From: Lytechinus pictus
Lineage: Eukaryota
Direction of reading: 5' to 3'
Assembly: GCF_037042905.1 (NCBI RefSeq)
Contig: NC_087250.1
Coordinates: forward strand, 26,600,001-26,664,000
Length of the DNA stretch: 64,000 nucleotides
Within the stretch, counting starts at the first letter, position 1. Each line of letters begins with the position of its first letter. The notes under the pieces were generated by a model. The model was not told the DNA's origin and searched no databases. It saw nothing but the letters and a program-made list of their open reading frames with translations. This document shows positions 15,228-63,420 of the stretch, piece after piece. The position numbers were made by a program, and so were the translations under genes.

Positions 15228-15520
15228 TTAGTCCTGCAGTGTTTCTATATAATTTGCAAGATCTGCCCTGTTGCATCTTGTCAGTGCACTACATAGATCC
15301 TTCACCATCTGTATCTTATTTCCCTCACAAGATGATTGTTGGTTCCACAGTTCTAGCATTGCAATTATACGATTTACCGCCGTTGGATTGTCCTCCTTGA
15401 TATGAAAAATATTTTCTGGATTTAACCCGAGCCTGATACCAAGGTGTTGCCACTCCGATCCGATCTTCACCGCTAGATCACTGAAGTCCACGTTGCACAG
15501 TACAATGGTCTCTTTACAAG
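15228..15520 (-). CDS. Terminal exon E encoding a death domain
   Basis: Acceptor tttctttatcgcccttaacag|CT, phase 1. Encodes DFSDLAVKIGSEWQHLGIRLGL...IAMLELW...LCSALTRCNRADLANYI, a canonical death-domain pattern, then TAA. Confidence 0.88.
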
Positions 15521-15871
15521 CTGTTAAGGGCGATAAAGAAATATGAGGTAAATCACTGTATTACTTTAAAAGGTCGAAGATAACTCACTCTTTGAATTGA
15601 TATGTTTAAACTTCTACCCATTATATGATTTGAATTTTTTTTTTTTTTTATTAATCACAAGTAAAAATTATTAAATGAAATAAAAATCTATAAATTTTGA
15701 ACCCTTAATATTGAACAAAGGTTTGAAATCTAGCAATAAAGTGTAAAGTGATTAGCTTTAATCAGGTAGGGTAATATATTCTTAACATTTGGTACTACAC
15801 CAATCGCTCTTTGCTTGAATGATAACAATATTGTGAATAATTGTGAATAATGAGAGGCAATATTTTTTTAA

Positions 15872-16455
15872 AGGAGAATGAAACCTTTGGAACAAGATAG
15901 CTTGTGTGAAAACAGAAAAATAACAGAAACAGACCAACGGAATTTTGAGAAAAATCGGACAAATAATGAAAAAGTTATGAGCATTTGAATATTGCGATTA
16001 CTAATGCAATGGAGATCCTCACATTGGCAATGCGACAAAGATGTGTGATGTCACTTGTGAACAACTCTCCCCATTACTTTAGTATATTTCACTTAAACTG
16101 CCTCTTTTATCACATCTATCAGTAGATCATGTGTTCTTTCTATAGGAGGGCATGTAATACAGATTTTTAAAGAATAGATCATGGATAAAGAGTTTGTATC
16201 ACCATAAGAAAAAGCAAAGCGAAACATTTTGGGGGGTATTTTACAGTCCATCAAAGGGAAAGTTGTTCAAATGTGACATTACACATCCTTGTTGCATTGC
16301 CGATGGGAGGATCTCCATAGCATTAGCGATTGCAATATTCAAATGCTCATAACTTTCTCATTATTTGCCCAATTTTTCTCAAACTTTCTTTATTCTTATT
16401 CTTAGATTTTTCTGTTTCGACACCAGCCTAATTGTTCCAAATGTTTCATTCCCCT
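15872..16455. mobile_element. Palindromic TTAA-flanked MITE (Kolobok-like) in the last intron
   Basis: TTAA|AGGAGAATGAAAC...GTTTCATTCCCCT|TTAA with about 200-bp inverted arms. Confidence 0.85.
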
Positions 16456-16489
16456 TTAATAACACAATAGAGAACGATTGAACCCTTAC

Positions 16490-16549
16490 TTGATCTTCTT
16501 GACATCATTAGACTCTTAGCTCCTGATTCTTCTTCCTCTTCAGTAATAC
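16490..16549 (-). CDS. Exon D, acidic linker mini-exon
   Basis: Acceptor after a T-run (...ctttatgaatttggaatgcag|) and donor CAA|gtaagg; 60 nt, symmetric phase 1-1. Encodes ITEEEEESGAKSLMMSRRS. Confidence 0.75.
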
Positions 16550-17094
16550 CTGCATTCCAAATTCATAAAGAAAAAAAAAACATTGATATATGGGGATAAT
16601 TGGAAAGTGATGCATTTAAATTGTCATTAATGGATTTCTATCGCTCTTGAATGTTAATTGTGAGGATAGAATAGTTGTTTATATTTTTTTTCGCTAATTT
16701 ACTTTAATTTTATTGCTTTTCTTATTTCATCACATGTTATTCTTCTTCTCTTCCCTTTCCCTCTTTTGTCTTTGATCATCTATTATCAAAATATTCGTCG
16801 CCAGTCCGTTGTTACAATGATTGTTCTATATGTTTTATATGAAACTGCATGGATGTGTTGGCGCGCCGATTGTGTTGGCCTCTCGGCCGTGGTGTCGTAA
16901 TGAAGACACACGAAACCTCGAAGTGGCTTTGTTAAATCATTCTTTTATAATAAGTTGGTCCCCATGTCGCTTGTTACTATATTTCATATTGTATGCACGA
17001 ATTACATACAGTATTTTATAATGAAAACTTTTATTTTAGGCAGTTGGATTGGACGATGTTTATTTCAATAAATAACATTCCCCTATTAATATAT

Positions 17095-17985
17095 AACAAG
17101 TGGAATGCCTCTCGCGGTCTCACCTGCATCACGCGATTCAATATAGCAGCAGTGCTGATTTGAAAACTACTATAAAATAATTATTCACAAAAAACACCAT
17201 TCATACAATGATACAATACTACGTTCATTGATATTTAACCTTAATCATGTGACCTAAAACTTGTCAGTGATACTTGATTACCCCTATATCCACATTTTAT
17301 ACACTATATCTATAAACTTTTGAAGTTATGACAGCAATCTAATAATTACCTCTAAAATGGCTAAAGTTCAATTACTTTAAATTACCTTTGACTTTGGTCA
17401 TGTGACCTGAAACACAGATGTTCCGTGATTCTTAGTTACTTTTATGTCCAAGTTTCATGAGTCAGATCCATAAAAAAATTCAGTTATGAGGGTAATTCAA
17501 CAGATACCCCCATTATGGCCAAAGTTCATTGACCTTTGACCTTGGTCATGTGACCTGAAATGCGCACATGATGTTCAGTGATACTTGATTACTCTTATGT
17601 CCACGTTTTATGAACTAGACCAATACACTTACAGAAATATGATGGTATTTCAACAAATAACCACAATCCGGCTAAAGTTCATTGACCCTAAATGACCTTT
17701 GACCTTAGTTACGTGACGTCAAACTTATGCAGAATGTTCAGTAATACTTGATTAACTTTATGTCCAAATTTCATGAGCTAGGCCCATATATTTTCTAAGT
17801 TATGATGACATTTAAAAAACTTAACCTTAGGTTAAGATTTGATGCTGATTTCCCAAACATGGTCTAAGTTCATTGACCCTAAGTGGCCTTTTGACCTTAG
17901 TTATGTGACCTGAAACTCAGACAGAATGCTCATTAATACTTGATTAACCTTATGGCCAAGTTTCATGAACTAGGTCCATACAATC
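17095..17985 (+). mobile_element. Helentron/HINE-like element with internal tandem repeats (3' end lost)
   Basis: AACAAGTGGAATGCCTCT head shared with 23815; tandem units of about 170 bp containing TGACCTTTGACCTT. Confidence 0.7.
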
Positions 17986-18480
17986 GCTAGAGGGTATTCA
18001 TTTGCCTCGCAATCTACTATGGTCAACAAGGAAATTCGTGATCACTCTCGCAAAAAGTGTTCACTAGCTTACAAGTTCACGAGCTTCCGAGTGCCGCCGC
18101 AACTCTTTATCAAGTGACGAAAATTATCTGATAACGTAGTCTATTTATACCAATCCCCAGGACCGTACGCACGAACGCGGGAACAATAGGTGGGCACTGA
18201 TCCGCTGTGTGATTGGTCGGGCGTTTCACCAATCAGTGCGTCGACGTACGGTGCGGCCGGTGATCCGTATATGCAAATAATCCCGAGGTATATGCAAATA
18301 CGCCGCGAGTCGGCAATATGCAAATAAGACAAAATTGGCGGGCTCGCTAGTTTCCCGTGGATGGGGGTTGACTAGCTGAGCACTGCCAGGTAAGGGGGTA
18401 TTGTGCTGTCGGAGGGTTCGCATCCAGAAATCTGGGATGTCGATCCCGCTGTCTCTGTTGAAGTTGTTAGGACAAAGACA
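17985..18480 (-). mobile_element. Penelope-like element 3' fragment
   Basis: PNNFNRDSGIDIPDFW, typical of the C-terminus of a Penelope GIY-YIG domain, followed by a hammerhead-like motif. Confidence 0.75.
18077..18117 (-). ncRNA. Minimal type-I hammerhead ribozyme variant (Penelope-associated)
   Basis: TCAC-TTGATAA-A-GAGT[loop]ACTC-GGAA-GC-TC-GTGA: stem I TCAC/GTGA, stem II GAGT/ACTC and palindromic AGCT stem III. Confidence 0.65.
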
Positions 18481-20997
18481 TATACTAATAGCCATGAAAT
18501 ATGTTTCTGCAGAATCAAGGATGCGTTAGTCAGTAGTTAAATTAAACGTGTTAACACATACAAATAGACGTTTTGACAAATACTTATGCAGAAACACTTT
18601 TAAAAAGTCCGAATAAACAAATTAGTCATTTGAATCATGAATGAAAATGAAAATCCATAATTTATTGTTCGAAATAGACATGAAATGAAATACTCCGAAA
18701 ATTTGCTTTGCCCAATTGATCGTGGGCCCGGCAGCCGCTGTGCAGCGCCAGATCGACGAGTGTTAAGGTCTTAAACTGTAAACTCCTGCTATAGCGTAAC
18801 TCGCTCCCTAGCTTATTGAAAATATGTCCAGTGTGTGCGCGCACTGCCTCTGTGTTGTTTGGTACCATTTGTTTGTACACCAACGCACCGGATGCACGCA
18901 TAGGATCCACTGCATGTACACGTACACGATCGATCACCTATGATTTTCTCTAAATGAAAAATATGCGGCACTTTTTTTTAATCTCTTATTTTGTGATGAG
19001 AAAGATGTTTTTTTTTAATGGACTACAACCCCCCCCCCCCAAAAAAAAAAAAAAAAAACTTAACCAGTTGAAAAAGCATAAGCCATACAGAGTGTTTGTG
19101 CGTGAATATTTTACAAATTAGATTAACATGCATTTAAAAAGTAAAAGCAGGGGCGGCTCTGAACATATTTTCGTTTGGAGGGGGTGGGGGGGGCAAAGAC
19201 AACAAGAGTACTTAGTATGACAAGATTTGTATTTTGGTGCAAACGTACATGTTACCATGAAACTACCCTCTGCATGAAGTAGTTGGATGTTTTGTAGTGA
19301 TTTATAGGTTGAGGAGTCTTTTGAACTCAGTGATTTCTGAGATATATAGGCTCTTTTCCGCGAGAGAGTATAGCATGCAAGCACTTTGGAAACATTTCAA
19401 ATCTGAAGTTGCAAAATCTGCTTCATGGTGCTAATCAGTTTAAAAATAAAAGGGCATTATTTCGAGTTATTTAAGTGCGAATCGCGACCTAAAATTTTTT
19501 TGTCACCAGAAACATGAATACCTTTGATGCTATCGCGAAAAATTGTAAATAATAGAAACTTAGACACTGGACATTCTAAACATTTTGAAAACCGTTAACA
19601 GGATAAGTACTACCTTACTGAATAATGATAATTGATGGAGCGCGAAGCACGAGCCAAAAATTTAGTGATTTTTTAACCTAAAATGTATTATTTTACTTCT
19701 TAAAAAGTATATTGTTAGAAAAAGACATATTTCATTTAAAAAAGGCCTCCATTTTGGAAAAAAAAAATAGTTTCCTATGGTTATTTTTTGGGGGACAAGG
19801 CGGAGGGGGGGGGGGGGCAATTGGGGGCATGTGCCTCCTTTTCCCTGTGAGACTAAATGATCAACATAAAACACTGAATTATCAATAAAAATATGAATTG
19901 TCCAATATATAGATTATTTTATGAAAATAACAAGTGATAAGGATAAGGAAGTATTAAAGAGGAGAAAATTATCCAATTATTTTCTTTGTGTAACTTAACG
20001 ATGAAATTACAATATCTTTTTGCAAATAAGATATTTTTGTTAATTAGGATTAAATTCTGGATTTCATTAGATGATAGTTTAAAGGTTCCCCAAAGCTTGC
20101 ATAGCTTTACACAAAAATTGAAAAGCACATTGTTTTCCAAATACATAAACCTCAACAGTGACTGACTTGAAGAATCATTCTCTCTCTCTCTCTCCCTCTT
20201 TCTTTTACTCTTACATCAGCTTTTTTCATTTTATTTATTTTAGCACTAATATGCACAATAATATAATTCAATATGTGCGTGTCATTTGTATTTACATCCT
20301 ATATGTAACATTGTAAGTGTTCAATGTATGCAGTCATGAAAACAGTGTTTGGCTAATTATGTATTTTACTTTACGGAAAACAAATTATAGGCCTACTATT
20401 CGTCATGTTCATATTTTCGGGATCTAGGGACCTTCCCCGACCTACTGCACTTAGTTATTCAATACTTTGCTAATTATCTATACAATGATCACTTTTTAAA
20501 ATTGACATTTTAATCCAATTGTTCTTTGTTTATCATGTATGTATGTATGTATTATTGTGAATTATAATTATTCTCCAGTTATTACTATGAATTTGTAAAT
20601 GAAACAATGCAAATCAAATCAAAGTATGGTACCAATAAAGATATTGTACATCTTTCCTCCTGCGTTGTGCTCGCTTGTTTTATTTTTAGATACATGCAGG
20701 TAAGTTTTGTAAAGAAAATGATTTGGCACATTTGGCGAGTACGATGACAAAATTGTAATTCTGATACCCCATGGCCCATTCTACATTCGATTACAAAAAT
20801 AAAAAGATACCCCCCAAAAAGAAAACAATCCTGGACTCGCACTTTAGTATACAACTTGTTTCAAAATTGAAAGTTTCCTTTTTGCAAAATGACATATGCA
20901 GCCATTTTCTGTTCTCTTGATTTTCGCAAAACTTACAAGATACTTACATATTTTAAAATATCAAATGCATATTTCAGTAAGCAACAAATATCACTCC

Positions 20998-21032
<35 letters not shown>

Positions 21033-22016
21033 CTGTATTCATGAGTGCCTATACAAAAGATACAAGACATTTCATTTTACAAATGGCCTCGAAATGGAGG
21101 AGTCGCCTTTAATAGTTTTCTGAAATTCCGAACAGATGACCTCGCACCAAGATATGTTGCTACCTTGGGCATGTTAACATTACATCAACAAAACCTACAT
21201 CCAGTCACAGCAAAGTGTCAAATCAAGTGGTGGGCGGACTTGAACCTGGGGCGGATTAGCCCCACTCTTCCCTATCCGATTTGTTAGATGTATCCTATTC
21301 ATCAGTCACTAAATGCTCGCGCTTCGCGCTTGTGTAAATTCTTTAGGTAATTTGATACACATAGCAAAAACTGGTAGTAATTTTTAATTTTCTTGTCTTA
21401 TTACATAAAATATCCAAAAGTTTGAGATGGTGATTCGCGCCTGTAACATCTCGCAAGGATGCTCTTTTGACAGTAATCACCACAATTGACCAAAAATCGA
21501 ATTTCACATATTCAGGTTTTTAATTTTTCCTGACCATTTGCTCGCGGAAAAAATAAAGCCTACATAAAATTATGTAATCAATCACTAGTCCTGAAGGCTT
21601 TGCTCAACTTTAGTACCACAAAACTCACAACTACTTCACGCAGATGATAATCTCATGGTGAAAATATCCGTTTGCACCAAATGCCCATTTTGACATATAA
21701 GTTCCCTTTTTTACTCCCCCTCCAACTTTCATGGGGTGCACGCCTTTCCCCTGTGTACTGCACTTGTACCAAGTGGTAGCCAGCGCATATATAAAAAAGG
21801 AAATGACTCATTGAACCCTTTCCCTTCTCAATATCTTTCTTATTTTATTTCTTTTATTTTATATCTCCAATTTTGGAACTTTTGAGGGACTAGAGCCAGA
21901 GTCCCCTTCTTTACGACAGTGGTTTTAATTGTTAAAGGACAAGTCCACCCCAACAAAAAGTTGATTTGAATAAAAAGAGTAACTAGGTTAAAACTGACAC
22001 ATGGTCAACGTAACCT

Positions 22017-22236
22017 GGGGGGTGTTTCACATAGATTTAAGTATGACTTAAATCGCACTTAAATGCCAACACGTATCTGAAATGCAACGCGCAATCTAAT
22101 TCATCAATACGCAATAGTGCGTGTACTCTTTGCATGATCTGACCAGTGCGCAATGCGGTCATGGCTTTTATACCGCGCAAAACTAGGCATTTAAGTGCGA
22201 CTCTAAGTCATAATTAAATCTTTGTGAAACACCCCC
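22017..22236. mobile_element. Harbinger-like MITE; further copies at about 22925-23105 and partial 22645-22785, set in TGTAACCTGG minisatellite
   Basis: GGGGTGTTTCAC...GTGAAACACCCC TIRs with about 50-bp inverted arms and CTG flanks. Confidence 0.75.
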
Positions 22237-23814
22237 TGGCCTATATAATGTAACCTGGAATTCAAAAGTAATCTGGCTTTGATAGGCTTTAAAGTGTGAT
22301 ACCTGTGCTTATTGTGTAACCTGGCCTCATAGTTTAACCTGCAAAGAGTTAACTTCTTAAAACAATAACCTTGCTTTAAACCTGGCTTTGAAATGTATCC
22401 TGATCTTTTAGTGTAATCTAAGCTGAGTTGCCTGATAATGTGATACCTGTGCTTATTGTGTAACCTTGCCTTATAATGTAACCTGCAAATGAAAAGTCAA
22501 GTGGCTTCCATAGACCTTTTAAGTGTGATTCATGTGCCTATTGTGTAACCTCTCCTAATAATTTAACCTGCTTTAAAGAGTTACCTTCTTTAAAGCGTAA
22601 CCAGGCTTTAGAAGGTATCCTGATCTAAAAGTGTAATCTGGGCCTACTTGCATGCAGTATAAAAGACATCACTGCATTGGTCAGATCATGCTGAGAGGAC
22701 TCGCACTTCTGCGTACGGTATTGATAAAAGAGATTCATGTTGCATATCATGTAAGAGTCATATTAAAATCTTTGTGAAACACCACTGACCTTATAGTGTA
22801 ACCTGACTACAAGTGTAACATGGCCTGATAATGTAGTCTTGCCTTGTAATGTAACCCAACATTAAATAGTAACTTGGCTTAAAATTGAAACTTATAGTGT
22901 AACCTGGCTTTACAATGTAACCATGGTGGTGTTTCACAACGATTTAAGTATGACTTAGGTAGCACTTAAATGCCAACGCAAATAGGCAGTAGTGCGCTGC
23001 CTCTACTCATGACCTGACCAATGCGGTCATGCCTTTTATATCGCACGCAATGAGGAATTTAAGTGCGACTCTAAGTCATACTTAAATCTTTGTGAAACAC
23101 CCCCTGGCCTTATACTGCATGCGTGAGTAGCAGACAGCATGGTAGTCGGATCGCAAGGTGTGCAGTGTCGAAGCTTAAATCGCATGGTAGTCATAAGCCT
23201 CGACACCGCACACCTTGCGATCCGACTTTCATGCTATGCTGTCTTTGACTCACGCATGCTGCGCTTTTTGCCATAGCAACTGACAAAATAGCGCTTACTA
23301 CGTACAGCGTAAGCATGTTGTATATCATATACGCGTCGTGCAACTCTGCTGTCTGATTGGTTGGAAGTTGGATTGAGCCTAAAATCCTTACGGTTTTCCT
23401 TGCGACTTGTCTCTGACCGGTCTGCGACTCTCAAGCTGACAAGAGCTGTGACGCCGGATCGGGCCGTAAGGTGTGCGCTTGCCTTAAAAGACATCACCGC
23501 ATTGGTCAGATCATGCTGAGAGGATCTACCTTTTCCTCATCTAAAAATGGGCGGATATGTTTCCATATGTCCTCTTCCCTCTTCTTGGAAAGTTCCATTG
23601 TTGACTTAACTGGGGGCATCTGAAAAAGTATTGGGATGTCCGCAGAGTTCACCATAAAAGATAATTTTTCTTCCTCTGCATTGCTTGCCTTCATGTTCCA
23701 GTCATAATGCCTTGTTCTGATAACTTAAATCTACATGTTGGATGAAAGCAAATGAAAAGTGTTATAAAAATACTTACATTGCTCATGATTTGGAGAGCGT
23801 ATCGAGATTAGAGT

Positions 23815-24626
23815 AACAAGTGGAATGCCTCTGGCGGTCTTACCTGCATCACGCGATTCAATATAGCAGCAGTGCTGACTTTCAAAACTACTATAACTCG
23901 CACAAGATGTTCAGTGATGATAATTCAACAAATACCCCCAACATGGCCAAAGTTCATTGACCTTACATGACCTTTGACCTTGAACATGTGACCTAAAACT
24001 TGCACAGGATATTCAGTGATACCTGATTACTCTTATGTCCAAGTTTCATGAGTCAGATCCATAAACTTTCAAAGTTATGATGAAACAAATTCGTATATTT
24101 AATGAGATGTGACCTTTGAACAGCGGTCTCCGGATTCAAACTTTGCCTATATTTTGGTGTCATCTACCTACAGACCAAAAAAATGTAATCCATTAAATAT
24201 TTTTCGAGTGTTGGCGCGGAAACCAACTCCCATACTTAACGAGCTGTGACCTTTGACCTGCAGACTCCGAATTCAAACTAATCCTGTATTTTGGTGTCAT
24301 CTGCCTATACACCAAACATTTTTAAAATCCATTAAATATTGTTCAAGTTTTTGTGCGGAAACCAACTCGCATATTTAATGAGATGTGACCTTTGACCTAA
24401 ATGTAGACTCCAACTTGCATATTTAATGAGCTGGAAACCAACTTGCATATTTAATGAGCTGCGACCTTTGACCTGCAGACTCCGAATTCGAACTTAGCCT
24501 GTATTTTAGTGTCATCTACCTACACACCAAACAGTTTTGAGTTATTGCTAGGAAACCAAGTTGGGGGGGGCGGACAAGGGCAACGCTTAATGCCCCCTAC
24601 GGACTTCGTCTGCGGGGGCATAAAAA
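23815..24626 (+). mobile_element. HINE-like element: head, tandem repeats and 3' stem-loop
   Basis: Same head as 17095; ends ATGCCCCC...GGGGGCAT-AAAAA hairpin. Confidence 0.7.
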
Positions 24627-24690
24627 CCTGAAATTGTCATGTATCACGGGTGCACCATCTCACTATTAATTTTGTATTTTCAACTTGCTA

Positions 24691-24911
24691 CACTGTAAAA
24701 ACTGTGATGTTAAACCTGACACCAGTAGTTGTCTATAGAGGACCACACACTGAAGTGCTAAAATTACACACTAGAGATTGAATGTAACACCACTTTAAAT
24801 GTAACAACCAAAAATGTTGTAATAACACCTAATACTGTCAATTTAACACCGGGGTAAAATGACTGGTGTTTTCATCTATGTACACCAGTTAACACCACAG
24901 TTTTTGCTGTG
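24691..24911. mobile_element. CACTG-terminated MITE with TA flanks; second copy at about 27162-27384
   Basis: TA|CACTGTAAAAACTGTG...CACAGTTTTTGCTGTG|TA. Confidence 0.75.
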
Positions 24912-24929
24912 TATCAACCAATTAACAAA

Positions 24930-27095
24930 TTGAGACCTTTGAACCAACTTGCATATATAATGAGCTGTGACCTTTGACCTTTGAATTTGAACTTAGCCTG
25001 TATTTTGGTGTCATCTACCTACACACCCAATTTTTTTTTAATCTGTTGAATATTCCATAAGTTATCATGCGGAAACAAACTCGTCTATTTAATGAGATGT
25101 GACCTTTGAACAGTGGACTCTGAATTCAAACTTAGCCTGTATTTTTGTGTCATCTACCTACACACCAAATACTTTTAAAATTCATTAGATATTTTTTGAG
25201 ATATTGCGTGGAAAAAAAACTCGCATATTTAATGAGCTGTGACCTTTTGACTCCAATTTTGAACTTAGCCTGTATTTTGGTGTCATCTACCTACACACCA
25301 AATATTTTTAAAATTCATTAGATGTGACCTTTGACCTGCGAAATTCTCCGTGCATTATTATTTTGTTCTTTCAAAATTCTATTTCGTTCCCACGAAATAC
25401 TCTTTCGTTCCCACGCAATATTATTTCGTTCCCATGCAATATTATCCCCCCTCTCTCTCCGATCCGCACCGGCCGTGTATAACACGCGCAGCATAGCAAC
25501 ATGCTTTGGTATGGTATGCGCTGATGTCTGAGGCTGATGATGATGGGGGTGATGATGACGGGGGTGATGATGATAGGGATGATGGGGTGATGATGATGGG
25601 GGTGTATAATGATAATGGGGGTGATGATGATGTTGGGGGGATGATGATGGGGGTGATAATGATGATGGGGGTGATGATGATGATGGGGGTGATGATGATG
25701 GGGGTGATGATGATGGTGGTGATGATGATGGGGATGATGATGATGATGGGATCATCACCCCTATCATCATCATCATCACCCGTATCATCATCATTCCCAT
25801 CATCATCACTCCCATCATCATCACCCCAATCATCATCACCCCCATCATCATCATCACCCCATCATCATAATCATCCCCATCATCATCACCCCCATCATCA
25901 TCACCCCCATTATCATCCATCCCATCATAATCATCACCCCCATCATCATCACCCCCATCATCATCATCACCCCCATCATCATCATCCCCATCATCATCAC
26001 CCCCATCATCACCCCCATCATCATCACCCCCATCATCATCACCCCCATCATTATCACCCCCAACATCATCATCACCCCCATCATCATCATCCTCAGACAT
26101 CAGCGCATACCATACCAAAGCATGATGCTATGCTGCATGTGTTATACACGGCCCGTGCAGATTGGAGAGGGGGGATAATATTGCGTGGGAACGAAATAAC
26201 ATTTCGTGGAAAAGAAATATTTTGTTGGAACGAAATAATATTGCGTGGGAACAAAATAATATTGCGTGGGAACGAAATGATATTGCGTGGGAACGAAATA
26301 GTAGTGCGTTGGAACGAAATAGTATTTCGAGGGAACGAAATAGTGTTTCGAGGGAACGAAATAGTATTTCGAGGGAACGAAATAATGCACGGAGATTTTT
26401 TTCTCCTTCATGTCACCTGGCGGGCTCTGTACATCTGCCTACACCTAATGAGCTGTGAACTTTGACCTACAGCAGACTCCGAATTCAAACGTAGCCTGTA
26501 TTTTGGTGTCATCTGCCTACACACCAAACATTTTAAAAATCCATTAAATATTTTTTTAGTTTTTGGGCGGAAACCAACTCGCATATTTAATGAGATGTGA
26601 TATTTGGACTCCAATTTCGAACATAGCCTGCATTTTGGTGTCATCTACCTACACACCGAATATTTTTAAAATTCATTAAATATTTTTCAAGTTATTGTGC
26701 GGAAACCAACTTGCATATCTAATGAGCTGTGACCTTTGACCTACATGCGGACTCCGAATTCAAACTTAGCCTGTATTTTGGTGTCATCTACCTACACACC
26801 AAACATTTTTAAAATCCATTAAATATTTTTCGAGTTATTGCGCGGAAACCAACTCGCATATTTAATGAGCTGGAAACCACCTTGCATATTTAATGAGCTG
26901 TGACCTTTGACCTGCAGACTCTGAATTCGAGCTTAGCCTGTATTTTAGTGTCATCTACCTACACACCAAATATTTTTGAAATCCATTAAATATTTTTCGA
27001 GTTATTGCTTGGAAACCACGTGGGGGGACAGACAGATGGACGGACAAGGGCAACGCTTAATGCCCCCTCCGGACTTCGTCTGTGGGGCATACAAA
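24930..27095 (+). mobile_element. HINE-like array of about 120-bp repeats with GACA/GACG microsatellite and 3' hairpin
   Basis: Repeated unit containing TATTTTGGTGTCATCTACCTACACACCAAA; same terminal hairpin as 24590-24621. Confidence 0.7.
25343..26430. mobile_element. Foldback element forming a spacer-less 1-kb palindrome with (GAT)nGGGG / CCCC(CAT)n core
   Basis: Arms mirror from TCTCCGTGCATTATT to AATAATGCACGGAGA, with 21-bp outer repeats, a unique segment and a microsatellite inverting at about 25750. Right end is GGGCTCTG|TA. Confidence 0.85.
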
Positions 27096-30373: not shown

Positions 30374-30377
30374 TAAA

Positions 30378-33300: not shown

Positions 33301-33823
33301 TTGTTCAGTCATAAAGAAGAATGTCTATGCTTTATATTGATTATAATATTAATGTGACGCAAGTGTGATTTCTACGTGAAAATATGCTTTGTTTATTCAC
33401 ATATATTTCTTGAAGAAAAAAAAATTATAAGCTAAATATCGGTTACCAAAATACGTTAATTGAACACTTTTTTTCACTGTTCAATAAATGCAAACTTTTA
33501 TCTATATAACAAGACCAATCTTAAGAGGAATAAACAATTCTAAGAGCAAAAAACGCTGATTGGAAAGATCGTCTCCAATGGGCTGCTGTCAGCTCAGCTG
33601 CTTACTGCTCATTGTGTGACGTCACTCAGCTGGAGCTCGCAAGAGGACCGGTGGAAGGCAGAAATATGGCATGAAAATAAATCATTTTTGAGAGCTGATT
33701 TCTGCAAACTCTGATCACTATTTTGAAAAGTGAAGTTATATATCTGATTAGTAATACTTTCCCTTTACAATGATGACCACATAAAGTCATTATAAAATAC
33801 TTTTGATTCTTCGGGTGTATACT
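30378..33823. mobile_element. Non-autonomous TTAA-flanked DNA transposon (Kolobok-like) nested in the Gypsy element
   Basis: Imperfect TIRs AATATACACACAAAGAA / TTCTTCGGGTGTATACT, flanked by TAAA and TTAA. Removing it rejoins the gag-pol linker (KVNELQH-LKVDSDG). Confidence 0.75.
31410..31556. mobile_element. Palindromic MITE nested in the Kolobok-like element
   Basis: ACCTCAAGTGATGTT...AACATCACTTGAGGT ends and an almost fully self-complementary body; AGAGCACC occurs on both sides. Confidence 0.7.
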
Positions 33824-36800
33824 TTAAAGGTAGATTCAGATGGTTTCATGATTTGTTCAGTTGATTCACAGGAACATGAATCAAAGGAAGAGTGGAAAGT
33901 CAATTTGAGAGTAAATAATGAGCCAGTTGAGTTCAAGATAGATACTGGAGCTCAGGCTAATATCCTCCCTGAAACAATCTATCACAAATTGAAACCGAAA
34001 CCAAAACTACAAAAAGCCAAAGTGAAGTTAACAGGTTACTATGAGACAAACATTCCAGTAAAAGGTCGTTGTAATGTCTAAATGGAGTGTTCGATGCTTA
34101 ATCATTCCTGGAAATCGTCAACCATTGCTAGGTCTCAGGACGAGTGAAGAGTGGTATCTAGTAAAACGCGTCTATCATGTTGATAAACAAACAGAGATAA
34201 AAACAGAAAAAAAAACTGTAGTGCAAGATTATGACAATGTTTTTGTAGGATTGGGATGTCTTCCAGGCAAACACCACATCACATTGAAAGACAATGCACA
34301 ACCAGTTCAACATGCATGTCGCAAAGTTCCATTTCCAATTCAAAAGAAACTAAAAGAGGAGCTAGATAAGATGGAAAACATGGATGTAATCAAACAGGTT
34401 GATGAACCGACAGATTGGGTGTCTTCTCTTGGTGTAGTCAAGAAAAAGAATGGTCAACTCAGAGTCTGTCTAGATCCGCGTGATCTAAATCGAGCAATCA
34501 AAAGAGAACACTATAAATTGCCTTCTAGAGCTGAAATAACCTCTCAGTTTGCTGGAGCCAAGTATTTCAGTAAATTAGATGCATCAAGTGGTTTTTGGCA
34601 AATCCAACTTGATGAAGATAGTTCGAAGCTTGTACATTTATCACTCCATACGGAAGATATAGATTCTTGAGACTACCTTTTGGTATCTGTAGTGCTCCTG
34701 AAGTTTTTCACAAGATAATACATAACTTGTTCGTAATGTACCTGGTGTCAATACCATGATGGATGACATATTGGTATGATGAAGCACACAAGAAGAGCAT
34801 GACGATCGTCTGAGAAAAGTTCTAGACATCGCACAAAAATCAAACCTGAAACTCAATCGAGACAAGTGTGAGTTCAATGTGAACCAGATGACTTTCATTG
34901 GTGACTTGATCAGCCAAGATGGAGTCAGACCAGATCCTAAAAAGGTGGCTGCCATCAGAAACATGGCAAGACCAACCTGTAAACAGGACATACAAATGTT
35001 CTTGGGGATGATAAACTACCAAGCAAAATTCATTCCAAACCTGTCAACAAGGTCTGCACCTCTACACATATTGCTTGAAAAGAAAGTAGAGTGGATGTGG
35101 GGAAAATGAACAAGAAAAAGCGTGGTGCGAGCTGAAAGAAGCTCTAATGAGTCAACCAGTGCTTCATTTCTATGATTGCACAAAATCCACAAAGATATCA
35201 GCTGACGCTTCAAAAAATGGACTAGGAGCACTTCTTCTACAGCAACATGAGCAAAATTGGCATCCAGTAGCTTACGCATCAAGAGCTATGACTGATGCAG
35301 AAACACGTTACGCTCAAATAGAAAAAGAACTCTTAGCTATCACGTACGGATGTGAAAAATTTCATCAATATATCTATGATCAAAAGATAGAAGTTGAAAC
35401 AGATCACAAGCCACTTATTCCATTGTTTGTTAAGTCATTGGCAGATTGTCCTCTACGCATTCAAAGATTACTAATCAGAGTACAGAGATATGATCTCAAA
35501 GTGTCATATACACCTGGAAAGTACATGTTCACTGCTGATACACTGTCACGAGCAGTAGATCCAAAAGCAGAACTGAATGTTGAAACTAAAGAAAATATCA
35601 GAGTCTATGTAGATATGATAATACAAGCAATGCCAGTAACATCAAACAAAAGACAATAACTTGTTGAAGAGACCAAAAAAGATGTAGAACTTCAAGAGTT
35701 GCTAGCCACCATCAGAAATGGTTGGCCAGAAAGTAAGCAACAATGTCCAGCAAGAATAAAACAGTACTGGAACATTAGAAGTGAACTCTCTGAAGCAGAT
35801 GGAATCATCTTCAAAGGTTCTAAAATAGTAGTTCCAAATTCCATGAGACGATACATACTAAACCAAGTACACGAAGGTCACTTAGGCATTGAGAAATGTA
35901 AGGAACGTGCTAGGGAAGTAATCTATTGGCCCAGAATCAATGCAGGCATAACTGAAATGGTCCAAAATTGTACTTCATGCCTAATGTACAAACCAAAACA
36001 ACAGGCTGAAAGCCTAAATCCTCATGCCGTACCCAATCGTTCTTGGGAAAAAGTTGCCGTAGATCTATTCACTTTGAACAAAAGAGAATATATGGTCGTC
36101 GTCGACTACTACTCACAATACATTGAAGTATGTACTATGACTTCAACTACAAGCAAGGCCGTGATTAATCACATGAAAGCAATATTTGCTCGTCATGGTA
36201 CACCATGTGAACTGATGTCGGATAATGGTCCTCAATTTGCAAGCCAAGAATTCAAAAGCTTTGCAAAGGAATGGGATTTTCACCATACCACATCAAGTCT
36301 ACATTATCCACAATCAAATGGCCTCGCAGAAAATGCTGTGAAGATTGTCAAAAATATCATACTGAAGTCACAGCACAGTGGACAATATATCCACAGAGCT
36401 TTATAAGTCTATCGAAGTTCACCAATAGCATGCAGGAAATCTCCAGCAGAACTTCTGTACAATCGTCAGATTTAATAGGTCAAACCTTCCCATGCTTGAC
36501 ACATTGCTCAATAACCAACAGATTGATACTAAATCTGTGAGGGGAAGAAAGGATGAGCAGAAGGTGAAGCAAAAAGAGCGATTCGATAAACATGCTCGAG
36601 ACTTGCCAAAGCTAAAACCTGAGATCATGTGATACTCCAAGACATGAAAACTAATATCTGGTCACAACGTGGTATCATAAAGTCTGTCAATAATCATAAA
36701 GATCATACCGAATTGAAACAGCTACAAGCGAGATACGTCGCAGAAACAGACGTCACCTAAGGCCAGATCCGAGACACCAAGCCGAGTCTATTCCACTACC

Positions 36801-39365: not shown

Positions 39366-39369
39366 CTAT

Positions 39370-45879: not shown

Positions 45880-47680
45880 TTTCCTATTGGTGGCCGACTG
45901 AGGCATTTTGTAAACAATTGGAAAAAAATATTACTTCTGATCACGTCATCTTGTTGAAGGGTATAAAATTTAAGTTTGAAATTTTATCTATTAAACCATA
46001 CCGTTCACTACCCCCACGCTGTTTTCATATCAGAACAGCTGAAGTAATGAAAGTCAAGAAATTATACACTTGAGAAAAAGGTGATTGAACAATGCTCCCA
46101 TGAGAAGGGAGAGTTCGTGTCCAACATTTTTACTCGGCCCAAGAAAAATGGTGGGCTAAGAGTTATTCTGGATCTTTCTGACCTGAACAAGTATATGGGT
46201 TGTCAGCATTTTAAGATGGATAGCATACATACAGCAACACAATTAATGTCAGAAAATTGTTTTCTTGCCTCAGTGGACCTCCGGGATGCTTACTTTTCGG
46301 TCCCAGTTTACCCTTCAGATCGAAAGTACTTAAGATTTATTTGGCAAGACACTCTTTCAATTTACGTGTTTACCAAATGGTTTGAGTACTGCACCACGGC
46401 TCTTTACCAAAATTTTGAAACCAGTGTTCGCCACACTGCACCAAGCAAATCACATCTTAGTGGGTTATCTTGATGACACCATCATTATTGGTAACAATAA
46501 GGCCAAGTACAGAAGGCAATAATTGATGCCACGGTTGGCCTTTTATCAGAGCTTGGGTTTATTATTTACCCTGATAAGTCGGTACTCAAACCATTACAGG
46601 AAATTACTTTCCTTGGATTTGTCCTTAATTCAGTGAATATGTCCATGACACTCCCTTCTGACAAGGTAAATGAAGTTAAAAAGTGTTGCTTAGACCTCCT
46701 CCAAACTAACTTGCCTAGTATTAGAGCAGTCTCCAGAACAATTGGGAATATTGTAGCAACATTCCCTGCTGCCCAATATGGCCCTCTTTCTATCGGGCTT
46801 TGGAATTGGACAAAATTGTAGCACCGAAAATTAAGAAAAGCCATTTTGATAGACCCATGCAACTCTCGCAGGCAGCTCGGTACGATCTTGAATGGTGGAT
46901 AGCAAACCTACACATTGTATACTCGTCTATTCAGAGATAAGAACCGGACCTGGAGTTGTACTCCGATGCAAGTGGTTCGGGATGGGGAGCTCCATGTTTA
47001 GAGCTAAATTCTAGCACATGTGGGCGATGGAATGCTGAGGAGCTTGTCAAGGCTAAGAATAATGAGATTAATTATCTTGAATTACTGGCAGCCTTTTTCG
47101 GACTAAATTCCTTTTGTACATCTATGAAAAAATGCCATATCCTACTACGCATAGATCATGTAGTTGCAAGGAAATTGCTAATACAATCTAGAAATGGTGT
47201 TTAAAGAGACATATTTGGCTGTCTATTTCTTATATTCCAGGCAAGCTAAATGTAGAAGCTGACAAGCTGTCTCGGAAATTCAATGATAGTACAGAGTGGA
47301 CACTGCATAAGCAAGCTTTTAACCAATTTACTCATTACTTTGGCTGACCAGATATTGACTTATTTGCATCTCGACTAAATAATCAATTGCCTAGGTATGT
47401 CTCTTTGCAACCCGATCCTAGTGCATTCTTGGTTGATGCATTCTCCCTAAACTGGGCCAAGTTGAATTTTTATGCCTTCCCACCATTTTGTCTCATACCA
47501 AGTTGCTTGCAGAAAATTCTGAATGACAAGGCTACGGGATATAGTTGTCCCAAATTGGCCCTCACAGTCTCGGTTTCCCTTGCTCCAAATTATGACAATG
47601 GGGAAACCTGTAGAATTCTAGAGGAGGAAAGGGTTATTAACTTTACCTTTCTCAAATGTCACTCATCCCTGTTGGGATCA
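45880..47680 (+). pseudogene. DIRS RT-RNase H-methyltransferase-like ORF, disrupted
   Basis: FTRPKKNGGLRVILDLSDLN, SVDLRDAYF, GYLDD, EINYLELLAAF, PDIDLFASRLNNQLPRYVS, FYAFPPF. Confidence 0.9.
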
Positions 47681-47699
47681 CATTGATCTATTATGTTGC

Positions 47700-48610: not shown

Positions 48611-49629
48611 AAAGTTACTTCTCAGCCCCCTTGTTAGGCAGTACCTCATTCTCGGTTGTATGAGGTATTATGTTGTGTTTACACCAGGGTTGTGACTTGG
48701 TGTAATTTTGGTATCAAATATGCCTCCTGAGCTTTAAAATCTCCTGTAATTTCTCCAGGAGAATTACGAAATAAAATAGAAAGATTAAATGAGAACAAAG
48801 TTTGAAATTTAATATTTATTTTATGAGTAATTCGGAGGGAGAGATTACAGGCCCCCCACTCCCTCCCATTACTCAAGGGCGAATTTAGCTCTAACTTGTT
48901 CTCGTCTTAGTTTAATCTTTCTTGCTGTTTTATCAGGAGTCATATTTGATGCTTTGAATGATGACTGCGCATGCGCGGGCGGGATCTCCTGTAATCTCTC
49001 CCTCCGAATTACTCATAAAATAAATATTAAATTTCAAACTTTGTTCTCATTTAATCTTTCTATTATATCGTTTTTCCAACACCATCTTCATCAATCTGTA
49101 ACAAACACAACACTGGTGATATTATTCACATCCCTGTTATGCCCAATGTAAATCAATGCAATCAAATGATGAGAAACTATTGAGTATCATTATTGGTGTA
49201 CATGCTTATTTATTGTAATGGTAATAGTAAAATATTTGTTAACATTATCAACAAAAGTAGAGAAGAAGTATGTTCCAACCAGTTTGGCTGCCGGAATTGT
49301 TACCCCTAAGGTACTTTTGTATAGCACGCGCGCGGGATCGAGATAGCTGAGGCATTCGTAGACAAATTACGGCCTCTGCTCAAGTCGCTCTATCTTTAAA
49401 TTACAGAATGTGACGCGTTAGCGGTACGGAAAAAAAAACGCACCCCGCGCGTGGTGTGACTACTATTTTTTTGCGCCACGAAATATAGTATGCACTGCCA
49501 TGGCACGGCTATATTGCAGACGAATTTGTAATGCGTGCGAAAATGTCAACATGTTAAATTATTGACCGCATTTTACCTCTAGACCGCGACGCCCTCACAT
49601 AAGGTACATTTATCAGTTAATCAACCTAC

Positions 49630-49819
49630 CAAATTTTGACTTGACTTCAGATGTGGTGACTACATGACTTCCGCATAGGAGTTCCTCCTGCTTGAAACAT
49701 TCTTGGAGGCGAAGTTTCATCTCTGTACAAATTGGGCAGAGCACACAGATGTCATACCGGATTCCCTTCGCCCATTGTTCACAAAGACTATCGAGTGTCC
49801 GTATCACAAAATCCATTAC
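49630..49819 (-). CDS. Exon C of the ROCO/COR-death-domain gene; end of the COR-like region with CxxC
   Basis: Acceptor ttatttttttgcag| and donor TTTG|gtaggt; 190 nt, phase 0 to 1. Encodes VMDFVIRTLDSLCEQWAKGIRYDICVLCPIC...SKF, with the W-x-x-G...CxxC pattern seen at COR C-termini. Confidence 0.82.
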
Positions 49820-51690
49820 CTGCAAAAAAATAACAAGGTCATTAAAGGAGTGAGTGTACTCCAGGCAGACCAGGCTGAAATTATTTTGAAATAAAATATG
49901 ATAATCCTTTCATAATCAATTTGGCGTTATACAGCTTGCCCCTACGCCTTTCTGCCACGGAAATAGATCAGTGGTTTAGCGGGATTATTCAGACTAGCGC
50001 AGATTTTCCGTCGACGGGGTAGTATCGGCATCGCGGCAGTCTTAGAAATTGATCATGATTTGAACTAATAAACATGATAAAGTAACATCAGACAAAGATT
50101 TCATCAATATCATACAAGGAAAAGCAAAGTTATGAAATTTTATTTCCATGCAATTTCCAATGAAAATGCAATGCCAATGGCGTACCGTAGATCACAGCAT
50201 GTGGGAGGGGGCACGTGGAACATTTTTATGTACGTATAACTGACTGCTTCGCGTGCTTAAGACCAGGTATGCCTTTTCTCACTTTAAAATATACATGTCA
50301 AGGACTGTTGCTAGGAATTCATGAAGAGCTTACCTAATCTCACCATTGTCTAGTAATGCGAGTGCGGAGCTTGCGGTGCATTTTTTTTAAGATTTACACC
50401 TTAACACAGAAAAATACTAAGCACTTTTTTGTAATACGTATATGAACATCACACTAATCTCATTAATCAAATATTGCGAGAGAAAAGCCCAACCTATTTG
50501 CTTTTATATCGAGACGTGAAAATCGACATTTAAGGACTGTTTGTAGTACTTCGTAAATAGAATACACATTTCTCCAGTCAAATAATGCCAGCGTGAAGCG
50601 CTAGCTGAAAATGTTGATATTAAGATCAGAAAAAGGGATTATTTTTTTCTAATTTATGAAGAGAATACCTATCTCACAAATCCTCTAATGCAAACGCACA
50701 TGTGGACTGTTTTTTTTATTTTTTATTCAGACTTTGAAATGGGGCAATCAATTTAAGTAATTATATCAATGATAATTACATCACTTGATAAAATAATGAA
50801 AGCTAGAAGCGCAAAAAAGGATTTGGTGTATATTGACTTGAAAGTTGAATATTTTTATGGTCATCTAATCATCCTGAAAGGGTTTATGTATCTCATTAAC
50901 CAGACAATGTGAGCCCCAGGATTAATTAACACCTAGATAGGCACTAAGCAAATTAAGGGGGGGGGTTATATTTTCCTCCCCTCCCCCACTGCGGAATGAA
51001 CAAGCTTATGGTGTAATATCCCCAACTATTCTTGTACACTTTATTGCAAGAAAATATTTTTCTATTATAAAAATGGATTAACAACTGATTTAATACATAT
51101 TGATTGTTGCAACTTATTTTGTGTACTAGAGACACACATCATACTGTATGCAAAATATCACATAATAATGATTTCATGTAATAACATACGAAGCCAGGAA
51201 AGTGGGAACCTGACGTCATTAGCCTACCTAATAAATATGTTTTATCACAGAGTGCATGCAACTGTTTTCCAAAAGTATTAAGTTTAAACTTCGTTATTTC
51301 TTATCCGATTTTGATGAACCTTCAAGCGTTTTACTTAGTGAATTTTTACGCTTTTTATTCAGATGTGATTATTCCAGCCCTGAGTAATCCTTTAAAAATC
51401 AATATCCAAATTCTGTCTAAGGACAAATGCGACCAGCCACTCAAAACGCACCTTCTTACTCAAAACAAATTTTGAGATTTTTCGGGTCGTACTAAGCTTT
51501 AAAATAATATATGACTTGTCCAAATTGATCAGCGATAGCCAACACAAGTACTTGATTGAATGTAGAAGAAAGTCAGCGAGAGCTTTAATTAAGAAATAAG
51601 AAGACAATGTATAGAAGTCAGGGTTTAATCAAGCATGAAGTTTGTGTACTTTCAATGAAACCTCCCAAAAATCTTCTTTTCTATTCTTAT

Positions 51691-53974: not shown

Positions 53975-54349
53975 ATTCTTATTTACAACTTGAAATTGTT
54001 AACAGTATGAAGAAGAGGTACATGTATTACCCTTTTAAATTTCGCTTTATGAATACCAACTTGCTTTTTGGCTATTTACAGATAACCTTACCTCACGACT
54101 TATTGTTGGTTTTAGGGTGGTTGGTCACAAATGGTCACTCAAAATTATTAGTAAGATATCAGGGTAGCAACTCATTAAAAAAAGGTCAGTACTTTTCATT
54201 AAAAACTGATACAAGCTACCGAAATCGTTATTTAGATTGATTCAGAGCAAATCAATGACAAGAGGGTTAATAAAACACTTCTTCTCATACAAATCTTCCA
54301 ATGAAATTGTATTTCTTACAACTGAACGTTATCGTTACGAAGTACTCAC

Positions 54350-54421
54350 ATCTTTGACGGCACTTGGAGCGGGAAGTTGATGATTATCACTTTCTTTTCC
54401 AGAATATTGGTATACAGTCAC
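54350..54421 (-). CDS. Exon B of the ROCO/COR-death-domain gene
   Basis: Acceptor ttttctttgatcttggatgttttag| and donor GAT|gtgagt; 72 nt, phase 0-0. Encodes VTVYQYSGKESDNHQLPAPSAVKD and links exons A and C in frame. Too short for the ORF track. Confidence 0.8.
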
Positions 54422-58300: not shown

Positions 58301-58800
58301 CTTTACGAGATACCGATAGTGCGGCTGACACGTAAACTAATACACCACCGCCTCGACTGTTGCGATCCTTGCGAAAGATTTGAAAATCCTTTAAGGAAAT
58401 ATGTCATATATATCGTCACTGCAGAAGGTTTCATTGAGTCCGATTATTCCAACATCAGACAGCGCCCTTGAAAAAACATATTTAGAATCATCAAATTTAT
58501 TTACAAGACCTCTAACGTTTAAAAAACACAGTGGAATGCCTTTGTTAAAGTTTGGGATTAATCCATGCTGCAAGGATATTACTTTACTCTTAATAAATGT
58601 ATTCTGATCATTTTCCACCGATCTCGCATCAACAGGGGAAACGCTGGGGGGAATAGGGAAATCTAAGACGGATTCATGAGACAACTCTTTTACATTTCTA
58701 TCATTTCTTTCACAAGTGGCACTCTCTTCTTGGCCTAATAGAAAGGACACGATTTCAATTTGTGTCCTAGTTGACCACAATGGTGACATTTAAGTTCGAA
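55382..58800 (-). mobile_element. Decayed CR1/L2-group LINE ORF2 (APE endonuclease and RT)
   Basis: FLNVRGL, IGLNET, LYRPPN, MGDLN (endonuclease); YRPISVL, QFGFR, FIDLKKAF, GVPQGSILGP, YADDT (RT); (AAAT)n tail at about 55382. Confidence 0.93.
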
Positions 58801-59186
58801 TCCATGTCGGCTATCGCACGGTTAGCAAACGACTTAATGCATGGCTGACTGTAAGAGTCGGAGTGTCGAGTGAGTTTGAACGGTAGCCTGTAAAACATCT
58901 TCGTTTCATGAAATGATCGAAATTCAAGCCATATTTCAAATAACCAGAACTTTTTATTTCTTGACCATTTTTTTTTAAATTGAGGTATCAAATTAAGAGC
59001 AGATATTGAACTTTTTTTTTAAATGTGGTTTTCTTTTTGAAACCCAGATACAGCCCGCCAAGTGACTTTTTGGTATTGCCTCTTCAAATCGTTTTTGCTC
59101 ACTCATGCGTGAATGAAAAAAAAAAAATCGATAAATCTCAGGGTTTTTTTTTTTTTTTTTTTTTTTTTTTGGGGGGGGGAGGGGGG

Positions 59187-62100: not shown

Positions 62101-62341
62101 AGGATTTTAGTTTAGAACGAATTCGCAAAAAATCCCTTCAAATTTATTACATTTGTGGGTAAAGTCATTATTACATTTGTGGGAGATCAAAAATTATTAC
62201 TTTTGTGGGTAAAGTGCATTATTACATTTGTGGGTAAAGTGTTATTACATTTGTGGGCGTTATTACATTTGCGGGTAAAGTGTTATTACATTTGTGGGCG
62301 TTATTACATTTGTGGGCGTTATTACATTTGTGGATGCAACA
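59187..62341. mobile_element. 3.15-kb foldback transposon with modular 800-bp TIRs and TG...CA ends
   Basis: TGTTACACCC...GGATGCAACA ends in G-runs. Outer CCCACAAATGTAATAA repeats, a unique spacer and inner 50-bp GTCCAAAGTCTTTTTTCCAGACCCGG repeats are all mirrored. Confidence 0.88.
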
Positions 62342-62513
62342 GGGGGACGCACTTTACAGTGTATAATATAATCATAATGAATGTTAATGTGTGCAATAGA
62401 AAGAATACTTTATGAGGTGAAATAATTTATGAATTTGGATGCAAATACAAATGCAGTATGAGCGATGTATGTTGATCGTTGTACACATGCACGGTGTAAA
62501 CTTTTTTTTTCTT

Positions 62514-63070
62514 GGTTACACTTCGTAATTCCGAAGGTTCGTAATTCCGAAACACGCAAATTGCCTATACCTCGATGTTCGTTAATCCGAAAACGTAAAA
62601 GGGTTCATTAATCAGAACATTTGTGGTGTTATTCCGAAGGTTCGTTATTCCAAAGGTTCGATAATCCGAAAACGAAATAAGGTTCGATGTTCCGAAGGTT
62701 CGTTAATCCGAAAACGAAATAAGGTACGTTATTTCGAAGGTTCGTTAATTCGAAAACGAAATAAGGTTCGTTGTTCCGAAGGTTTGTTAGTCCGAAAACG
62801 AAATAAGGTTAGTTAATCATTTAGTTTTCGGACTAACAAACCTTCGGAATTATGAACCTCATTTCTTTTTCGGATTAACGAACCTTCGGAATTACGAACC
62901 TCACTTCGTTTTCGGACTAAGAACCTTCGGAATTACGAACCTAATTTCGTTTTCGGACTAACAAACCTTCGGAATTAAGAACCTTAGGAAATACGAACCT
63001 TCGGAATAACGACCCTTCGGAATATCCGAACCTTCGGAATAACGAAGCTTCGAAATTACGATTGTATGCG
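62514..63070 (+). mobile_element. Same foldback MITE, copy 3
   Basis: GGTTACAC...GTATGCG ends; TSD TTTTTTCTT/TTTTTTTTT. Confidence 0.85.
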
Positions 63071-63259
63071 TTTTTTTTTTACGTGTAGCCCTGGAGCACC
63101 TCGGCGATCTTAAGGCCCGTGCAATGTACAGATTTGTATGGGTGCAAAATCGCACAAATGATGTAATTGCAAAATGGGCTGTAAAATCGATATCAAACCA
63201 CCAATGAAATGTCAAAGGTCTATCTAGGGGTCATATCAGAGTCAATTAAAGTAATATAC

Positions 63260-63420
63260 CTTGATAGTAGCTTCGTGAGGTGGCAACATCTCCAGTTTTG
63301 CAAGATGTTGTTTACCAATCATGATAGTGATCTGACGATAGAATAAGCTATTAACTGATTGATTATACGTCTCCATCATCCATCGCACTGCTCTAGTCAT
63401 TAGACGATGAAACAAACCAT
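63260..63420 (-). CDS. Exon A (first in window) of a ROCO/COR-death-domain gene; COR-like region
   Basis: Acceptor tttttgctgtccacag|AT and donor AAG|gtatat; 161 nt, phase 1 in and phase 0 out. Encodes GLFHRLMTRAVRW...EATIK, resembling the G-L/F-F-x-R-L motif of COR domains. Confidence 0.8.

Follow-up and report, generated by a model that had tools for sequence, protein, structure and literature searches.

The window analysed here is a stretch of 64,000 nucleotides (nt) from the Lytechinus pictus genome (contig NC_087250.1, G000:C6, positions 26600001–26664000; assembly of 812 Mb). All coordinates are given in window numbering, and positions beyond 64000 are window-equivalents. The window is AT-rich (GC content 0.31–0.41) and full of transposon remains. 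Five exons, designated A to E, lie on its minus strand, and they very likely close, on the 3′ side, a single large ROCO gene that extends at least from about 117,000 to about 14,000, covers more than 100 kb and encodes a Roc-COR-Death product. An earlier reading made from the sequence alone (hereafter the sequence-only reading) had described five minus-strand segments with AG/GT borders, phases of 0, 0, 1 and 1, and a single frame of 257 aa, and all of these could be read in the DNA. Joined, the exons amount to 776 nt, that is, 2 nt of a split codon, 257 codons and a stop codon, and the pyrimidine tracts are good at all acceptors of this five-exon tail.

The exons were fixed by tblastn of two proteins onto the DNA, namely P0001, a 554-aa L. 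pictus protein named "probable serine/threonine-protein kinase roco4" by NCBI, and P0002 (L. variegatus LOC121416731, 271 aa), in which exon C sequence is fused to a death domain; a linker peptide of L. variegatus was used in the same way. The translations of exons A and C are 100% identical to P0001 residues 409–463 and 487–549, respectively, and exon B corresponds to residues 463–486, with a homologous exon at the same position in a paralogue on contig C9. A motif scan of the minus-strand open frames placed the GLFHRL segment at 63245–63436 and the W..G...C..C segment at 49616–49909, and a 110-aa minus-strand frame (15231–15560) represents the death domain (Pfam PF00531). Exons B and D are absent from the list of open reading frames (ORFs), as had been remarked, and both are too short for listing (24 and 20 aa). 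Exon D was found with the L. variegatus linker peptide (16550–16491, E 3e-7, 65% identity; next match E 0.15). Intron 3 contains 1165 open AG...GT segments of 27–120 nt that are compatible with phase 1/1, so splice borders and phase are insufficient for exon D, and it is homology that singles this exon out. The exon is included in an NCBI model (P0152), and its phase of 1/1 means that the frame is preserved if it is skipped.

The frame does not begin in the window. Position 63420 is the first base of exon A, which is in phase 1; the preceding G of a GAT codon sits in the upstream exon, and the five-exon frame is therefore the tail of a longer gene. The LP-DGLFHRL motif is interrupted by the intron upstream of exon A. 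The sequence-only reading had placed the N-terminal domains outside the window, and a look beyond position 64000 revealed a Roc domain together with COR-A exons, reaching about 117 kb. The other exons of P0001 map to 64999–85934 (tblastn, 100% identity), and two more upstream exons, which carry the P-loop and switch I, were revealed by the relatives P0003, P0005 and P0154, the last a 1332-aa L. variegatus protein with Pfam Roc, COR-A, COR-B and Death domains. P0154 gave 18 tblastn matches, 16 of which run colinearly from 117075 to 15246, with the other two on degenerate extra copies. Since the P-loop exon itself opens in phase 1, the gene must begin farther upstream. P0001 contains Roc (PF08477, E 2.6e-9), with the motifs GQERVGKTS, DFAGQ and THRD intact in the gene, and COR-A (PF16095, E 2.3e-18, 66.9 bits versus a cut-off of 35.3, residues 204–344). 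The stretch of 64–114 kb was searched by tblastn with the relatives only. At 114–164 kb, Pfam found LINE-type (long interspersed nuclear element) and THAP pieces only, and no N-terminal domain, among 123 minus-strand ORFs of at least 56 aa; one ORF of 248 aa in this stretch has no Pfam match.

Two degenerate pieces were also seen among these upstream exons. A second COR-A exon copy with stops lies just downstream of the real exon (66028–66168, minus strand; L003:2028–2168), with 40% identity to P0001 residues 299–345, and there is a weaker extra match at 67166–67237.

Table 1. Coding, untranslated and repeat features of the locus, in window numbering; positions beyond 64000 are window-equivalents, and a slash marks an exon border
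Feature	Position	Strand	Basis and remarks
P-loop exon (GQERVGKTS)	116970–116740	−	Homology to P0003/P0005/P0154; sequence read
Switch-I exon	114939–114808	−	Homology to P0003/P0005/P0154
Exon A	63260–63420	−	161 nt; cacag/AT ... AAG/gtatat; begins in phase 1, ends in phase 0; start of COR-B
Exon B	54350–54421	−	72 nt, 24 aa; ttttag/GTG ... GAT/gtgagt; phase 0 at both ends; variable COR-B loop
Exon C	49630–49819	−	190 nt; tttgcag/GTA ... TTTG/gtaggt; phase 0 start, phase 1 end; COR-B end and four-cysteine motif
Read-through of exon C donor	49616–49629	−	RLIN and stop of the 554-aa model; P0001 ends ...KSKFGRLIN, colinear 49819–49616
Intron 3	16550–49629	−	33.1 kb, phase 1; enlarged by transposons and satellite DNA
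Exon D	16490–16549	−	60 nt, 20 aa; atgcag/GT ... TCAA/gtaagg; phase 1 at both ends; acidic serine-rich linker
Exon E, coding part	15231–15520	−	ttaacag/CT ... TAA; death domain
TAA stop codon	15228–15230	−	Sequence read
3′ untranslated region (UTR)	14500–15227	−	RNA contigs; at least 645 nt in one contig, about 555 nt beyond 14500 in the other
P0152 first exon, coding part	23391–23494	−	Within dispersed repeat
Satellite block	24082–27018	n/a	Tandem units of 132–167 bp flanking two trinucleotide-type arrays of opposite sense
Long terminal repeat (LTR) retrotransposon pol in pieces	33785–36403	+	Pfam (protease, reverse transcriptase, RNase H, integrase); antisense to the gene, within intron 3
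Reverse transcriptase fragment	39314–40360	+	Pfam; intron 3
Reverse transcriptase fragment	46051–46470	+	Pfam; intron 3

The tail encodes the C-terminal part of a Roc-COR-Death protein, as had been proposed, with COR-B in exons A to C, a linker in exon D and Death in exon E. The COR-B profile (PF25497) scores 28.7 bits in P0001, against a cut-off of 27, over residues 397–533, which come from the last upstream exon, exons A and B, and most of exon C. Exon C alone reaches 13.8 bits (E 0.053), and exon A alone gives no meaningful Pfam match. A COR-B profile search of the genome recovered two other loci on contig C5 and missed the C6 locus, because its exon-sized pieces are too weak singly. GLFxRL and CxxC patterns had both been put forward as marks of COR. 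A GLFxRL-type motif is shared with a COR-B locus on C5 (L001). CxxC, in contrast, is no general mark of COR; it is part of a four-cysteine motif kept throughout this family, and L001 lacks it. In this motif, which closes COR-B in exon C, C-x2-C (CPxC) is followed by a third cysteine after about 8–9 residues and a fourth after 7. The four cysteines are kept in 42/42, 40/42, 33/42 and 41/42 aligned relatives, respectively, from echinoderms to amphioxus, a pattern which suggests that the motif is probably a zinc-binding knuckle. L001 itself (G000:C5:30906212–30909577) is a single 409-aa frame with a COR-B score of 32.6 bits, the motif GLFSRI and no CxxC, and belongs to a different ROCO gene; BLASTP against it recovers the LPxGLFxR motif only (E 1.6).

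The death-domain signature reported for the last exon is borne out by Pfam, with exon E scoring 39 bits (PF00531, E 8.8e-10), well above the cut-off of 22.6. Its nearest sequence matches are the death domains of ankyrin-1, RIPK1 and CRADD, and these are weak (E ~3e-3). The fold was read from an AlphaFold model of the 62%-identical C9 paralogue, P0015, built with 42 relatives (mean predicted local distance difference test score, pLDDT, 86.7). This model resembles both solved COR domains and death domains, in agreement with the proposed architecture: Foldseek ranks the COR domain of CtRoco first (E 9.5e-7), followed by LRRK2 and LRRK1, and comparison with the death domains of ankyrin, RIPK1, FADD, RAIDD and PIDD gave target template modelling (TM) scores of 0.6–0.8. 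The death region of P0015 (residues 260–345) has five helices of at least 4 residues. Residues equivalent to exon D have a pLDDT of 49–60, and exon D, an acidic linker of about 20 residues, is accordingly predicted to be disordered.

We then compared the joined frame with its closest relatives. It aligns over residues 1–252, in one BLASTP alignment each, to two proteins: P0015, from L. pictus LOC129268896, at 62.5% identity (E 6.6e-114), and isoform X1 of L. variegatus LOC121420992, P0154, at 64% (E 3.2e-108); at the level of the sequences, an unbroken alignment across all four junctions is far beyond chance. P0015 and the products of LOC121420992 (P0153 and P0154) have the same order of Roc, COR-A, COR-B, linker and Death, and the same four-cysteine motif. 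All three are automatically annotated as "uncharacterized", and they share the five terminal exons and the intron positions with the C6 gene, with 62–64% identity over the 257-aa tail. The P0015 gene lies in the same genome (contig C9, G000:C9:3923435–3956794), and its five matching terminal exons are separated by introns at identical positions. These introns measure 2.05, 1.46, 1.84 and 0.45 kb, versus 8.8, 4.5, 33.1 and 0.97 kb in the C6 gene, so that the tail occupies 10.5 kb in the paralogue and 48 kb here, and of the two only the C6 gene is split by NCBI into two models. Relative to the C9 paralogue, the Nei-Gojobori omega is 0.37 overall, 0.25 for exons A–C and 0.57 for exons D–E, at a synonymous divergence (dS) of 0.68. 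Both halves are under coding constraint, averaged over both lineages. Close copies were seen at three places in the L. pictus genome, on C6, C9 and C11. The C9 copy is compact; its L. pictus protein at NCBI has 349 aa and represents the C-terminal part only.

The C6 gene had been called hidden, which holds in one respect: its exons are already present in NCBI models, A–C in P0001 and D–E in P0152, and it is as one gene that they had not been recognised. P0152 is the product of the uncharacterized L. pictus LOC135154574 (151 aa); an exon at about 23391–23494 supplies its first 35 residues, after which it continues into exons D and E. The prospect that exons A–C and D–E belong to separate transcripts had been raised at the outset, and the NCBI models are indeed split in this way; we hold the split to be a likely artefact, with a single gene most likely behind both models. 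The annotation pipeline may simply have failed to bridge intron 3, which is 33 kb long and filled with transposons.

To look at transcripts, we examined the stretch of 14500–24050 in two contig runs from two studies (X1 and X5) and in the raw L. pictus RNA-seq runs X9 and X10. The index search yielded no run registered as RNA, and the RNA label of X1 and X5 is itself a guess; they were treated as RNA in view of contigs that break off at the exon E acceptor and a depth of zero in the adjoining intron. Record 1 of X1 (2117 nt) matches 14583–15520 with its first 938 letters, with 0 differences, and the match ends at the exon E acceptor; its other 1179 letters have no listed piece in 14500–24050, the P0152 first exon included. 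Record 8 of X5 (1665 nt) lies on 14500–15520 and overhangs it on both sides, by 555 letters below 14500 and by 89 past 15520. The depth over exon E and the 3′ UTR is 15–17. In both contig runs the mean depth of the bin 15457–15775 equals the exon depth multiplied by 64/319 (hand arithmetic), so the intron beside the exon E acceptor is uncovered. The contigs are spliced transcripts in which the exon E acceptor is used and exon E is terminal. The 3′ UTR is 0.65 kb long or longer, and its probable length is about 1.3 kb. Of the junctions that RNA was expected to reveal, the exon E acceptor at 15520 is confirmed, and the C-to-D junction was not directly seen. A protein search for an L. pictus entry that derives from a transcript and joins exons C, D and E returned the NCBI models only.

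Several observations weigh against a single Roc-COR-Death gene at this locus. The NCBI pipeline gives separate models for exons A–C and D–E. Among the RNA rows listed for 14500–24050, beyond which there are a further 105 joints and 1061 loose ends, no C–D or D–E joint and no loose end at 16549 or 15520 was found; exon C lies outside this stretch. The raw runs X9 and X10 give no coverage of exon E or the 3′ UTR; with about 6% of each run read, this is uninformative in either direction. The closest L. variegatus model with exon C, P0002, is merely 56% identical and has an unrelated N-terminus, and by these comparisons the C6 copy is fast-evolving, given its omega for exons D–E and its 56% identity to P0002, versus 90% within the orthologous pair of P0015 and L. 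variegatus P0154. The biochemical mechanism considered below is wholly inferred.

Two transcription units, as in the NCBI models P0001 and P0152, would yield a ROCO protein without a death domain and a 151-aa death-domain protein that starts from a repeat-derived exon at about 23.4 kb. We consider this improbable, also in the variant in which both forms coexist with the fused one as isoforms. The alternative exon has a plausible donor (C/gtaagg) in phase 1, which fits exon D; exon D contains in-frame ATG codons, although its residues before these ATGs are conserved in frame with the paralogue and L. variegatus. AATAAA/ATTAAA signals occur 400–800 nt past the exon C donor, and the C-to-D junction is missing from the RNA rows mentioned above. 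However, a dispersed repeat (23300–23600) encloses the alternative first exon; it has 693 first-look candidates in the genome, 40 of which were scored, giving 47 matches at 75–100% identity, so that read mapping there is unreliable. It is this repeat that supplies the start codon and first exon of LOC135154574. Moreover, no piece of the 2117-nt contig, whose match stops at the exon E acceptor, is listed on the alternative exon, and among the relatives COR-B, linker and Death are joined in a single protein. Exon D is therefore unlikely to be preceded by the repeat-derived exon in the genuine transcript.

The divergence of the C6 copy also bears on whether it is a decaying duplicate, with exons still open but the full-length Roc-COR-Death protein no longer made. 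It is 62% identical to the C9 paralogue, against 90% for the C9/L. variegatus pair; its introns are 2–18 times longer and transposon-filled; degenerate duplicate exon copies with stops sit in the upstream introns; and coverage is zero in the two raw RNA-seq runs within the fraction read. Yet every mapped exon is open, the splice sites and GTPase motifs are intact, omega (0.37) is below 1, and contigs of two studies show spliced RNA over exon E and the 3′ UTR. Decay is thus very unlikely, and an intact Roc-COR-Death gene accounts for the locus better.

With Roc, COR-A and COR-B all present, the gene is a member of the ROCO proteins. A search with P0001 among 1.84 billion cluster representatives gave 6375 matches at E ≤1e-3, 226 of them at E ≤1e-30. 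Among 26 of the top family representatives, Pfam found Death in 17 (C-terminal), TIR in 10, in 9 of these after Death, and an N-terminal Neuralized domain in 8; other domains were DED, Macro, CARD, TAZ, and kinase plus ZU5. Ten clusters checked by name come from Strongylocentrotus, Diadema, Lytechinus, a brittle star, a feather star and amphioxus, and their names are automatic or "uncharacterized". The suggestion of an invertebrate, lineage-specific family fits these ten, which are all echinoderm or amphioxus, as far as names go. We found no description of echinoderm ROCO-Death proteins in the open-access literature, and PMC7075850 and PMC2575513 yielded nothing of relevance. The C6 locus is an ordinary member of this unstudied echinoderm/amphioxus ROCO-Death family and not a new kind of gene.

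The kinship with DAPK that the sequence-only reading proposed did not hold up. DAPK1 shares Roc-COR followed by a C-terminal death domain, and the standard classification reviewed by Wauters et al. (2019; PMC6337361) sorts Roco proteins into three groups and lists a death domain for the DAPK1 group only. However, Pfam finds no kinase or ankyrin in P0001 or in the relatives P0154, P0005 and P0003, full-length ones among them, nor in the 123 minus-strand ORFs (at least 56 aa) at 114–164 kb. A sequence search of the PDB with P0154 matched bacterial and archaeal Roco proteins, LRRK2 and LRRK1, and did not match DAPK1. An LRRK or a Dictyostelium Roco kinase, the source of the name "roco4", was likewise rejected: COR-B is followed by the linker, Death, a stop and the 3′ UTR, and neither a leucine-rich repeat (LRR) nor a kinase is found in P0001 or P0154. 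As for an LRR of the MFHAS1 type, Pfam detects none in P0154, P0005 or P0003, and the gene's own 5′ end lies beyond the mapped exons. The best structural matches to the paralogue COR-B, the COR domains of CtRoco (Chlorobium tepidum), LRRK2 and LRRK1 (Foldseek E 9.5e-7 to 1e-5, probability 1.00), share 11–17% sequence identity with it and occur in LRR and kinase contexts, without a death domain.

Amphioxus has homologous proteins of the order Neuralized-Roc-COR-Death-TIR. In these, exemplified by P0011 (Branchiostoma belcheri LOC109482588), a Roc-COR core 44–46% identical to P0001 (E ~1e-110) is followed by Death. The amphioxus proteins add an N-terminal Neuralized domain and, past Death, a TIR domain as a MyD88-like tail, whereas the urchin gene stops after Death. 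A MyD88-like ROCO-Death-TIR protein of this type was rejected for the C6 gene, as a TAA codon comes right after the death domain and RNA is colinear from 15520 to below 14500, with no later exon. Two further papers describe ROCO-containing MyD88-like and TLR-like proteins in the mollusc Aplysia (PMC9334734) and ROCOs with CARD and death domains in the placozoan Trichoplax (PMC11378527). Compared by description only, these too are non-DAPK proteins that combine Roc-COR with adaptor domains of innate immunity, in other phyla and with other partners.

How might such a protein work? CtRoco and LRRK2 dimerise through COR-B. By analogy with these proteins, the Roc-COR unit of the C6 gene would act as a nucleotide-dependent dimerising switch, and in the likeliest working model the dimer would present or release the death domain, tethered on its flexible linker, to nucleate a death-fold signalling complex. 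By analogy with known death-domain assemblies, the death domain might then recruit other death-fold proteins for cell death or innate immunity; an immune or cell-death role of the C6 gene is thus something we infer by analogy only. More tentatively still, the Roc-COR(four-Cys knuckle)-Death(-TIR) proteins of echinoderms and amphioxus, whose N-termini are interchangeable (Neuralized, DED, Macro, CARD, TAZ), could conceivably be a GTPase-switched counterpart of NLRs, in which ROCO in place of the NACHT ATPase controls death-fold/TIR assemblies. Such proteins would be continuous with bacterial Roc-COR-Zn ribbon-TIR conflict proteins, and the fast-evolving L. pictus copy would be a diversifying member; we regard this wider view as possible but doubtful.

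For annotation, the consequence is a correction, as two L. pictus models probably belong together in one Roc-COR-Death gene that exceeds 100 kb. The gene also draws attention to a sizeable, automatically named family of deuterostome invertebrates, undescribed in the open-access literature as far as it was searched, which combines the ROCO switch with death/TIR adaptor domains. A second, kinase-less ROCO-Death lineage would be useful for comparative immunology and for the study of Roc-COR targets other than kinases.

Intron 3 contains retrotransposon pieces on the plus strand and a satellite block (Table 1). The two trinucleotide arrays of this block are TGA-rich (25535–25750) and CAT-rich (25765–26091), and they give rise to long His/Asp/Gly-rich pseudo-ORFs on both strands. 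Two places, 17052–18008 and 23751–24050, show very high single-strand RNA depth, and a joint that "goes back 6336" from 23905 to 17570 is supported by 279 (276 + 3) and 303 raw reads in the two RNA-seq runs. Related tandem units, about 140–150 bp long, are present at both; the depth there therefore probably reflects a satellite family transcribed from elsewhere in the genome.

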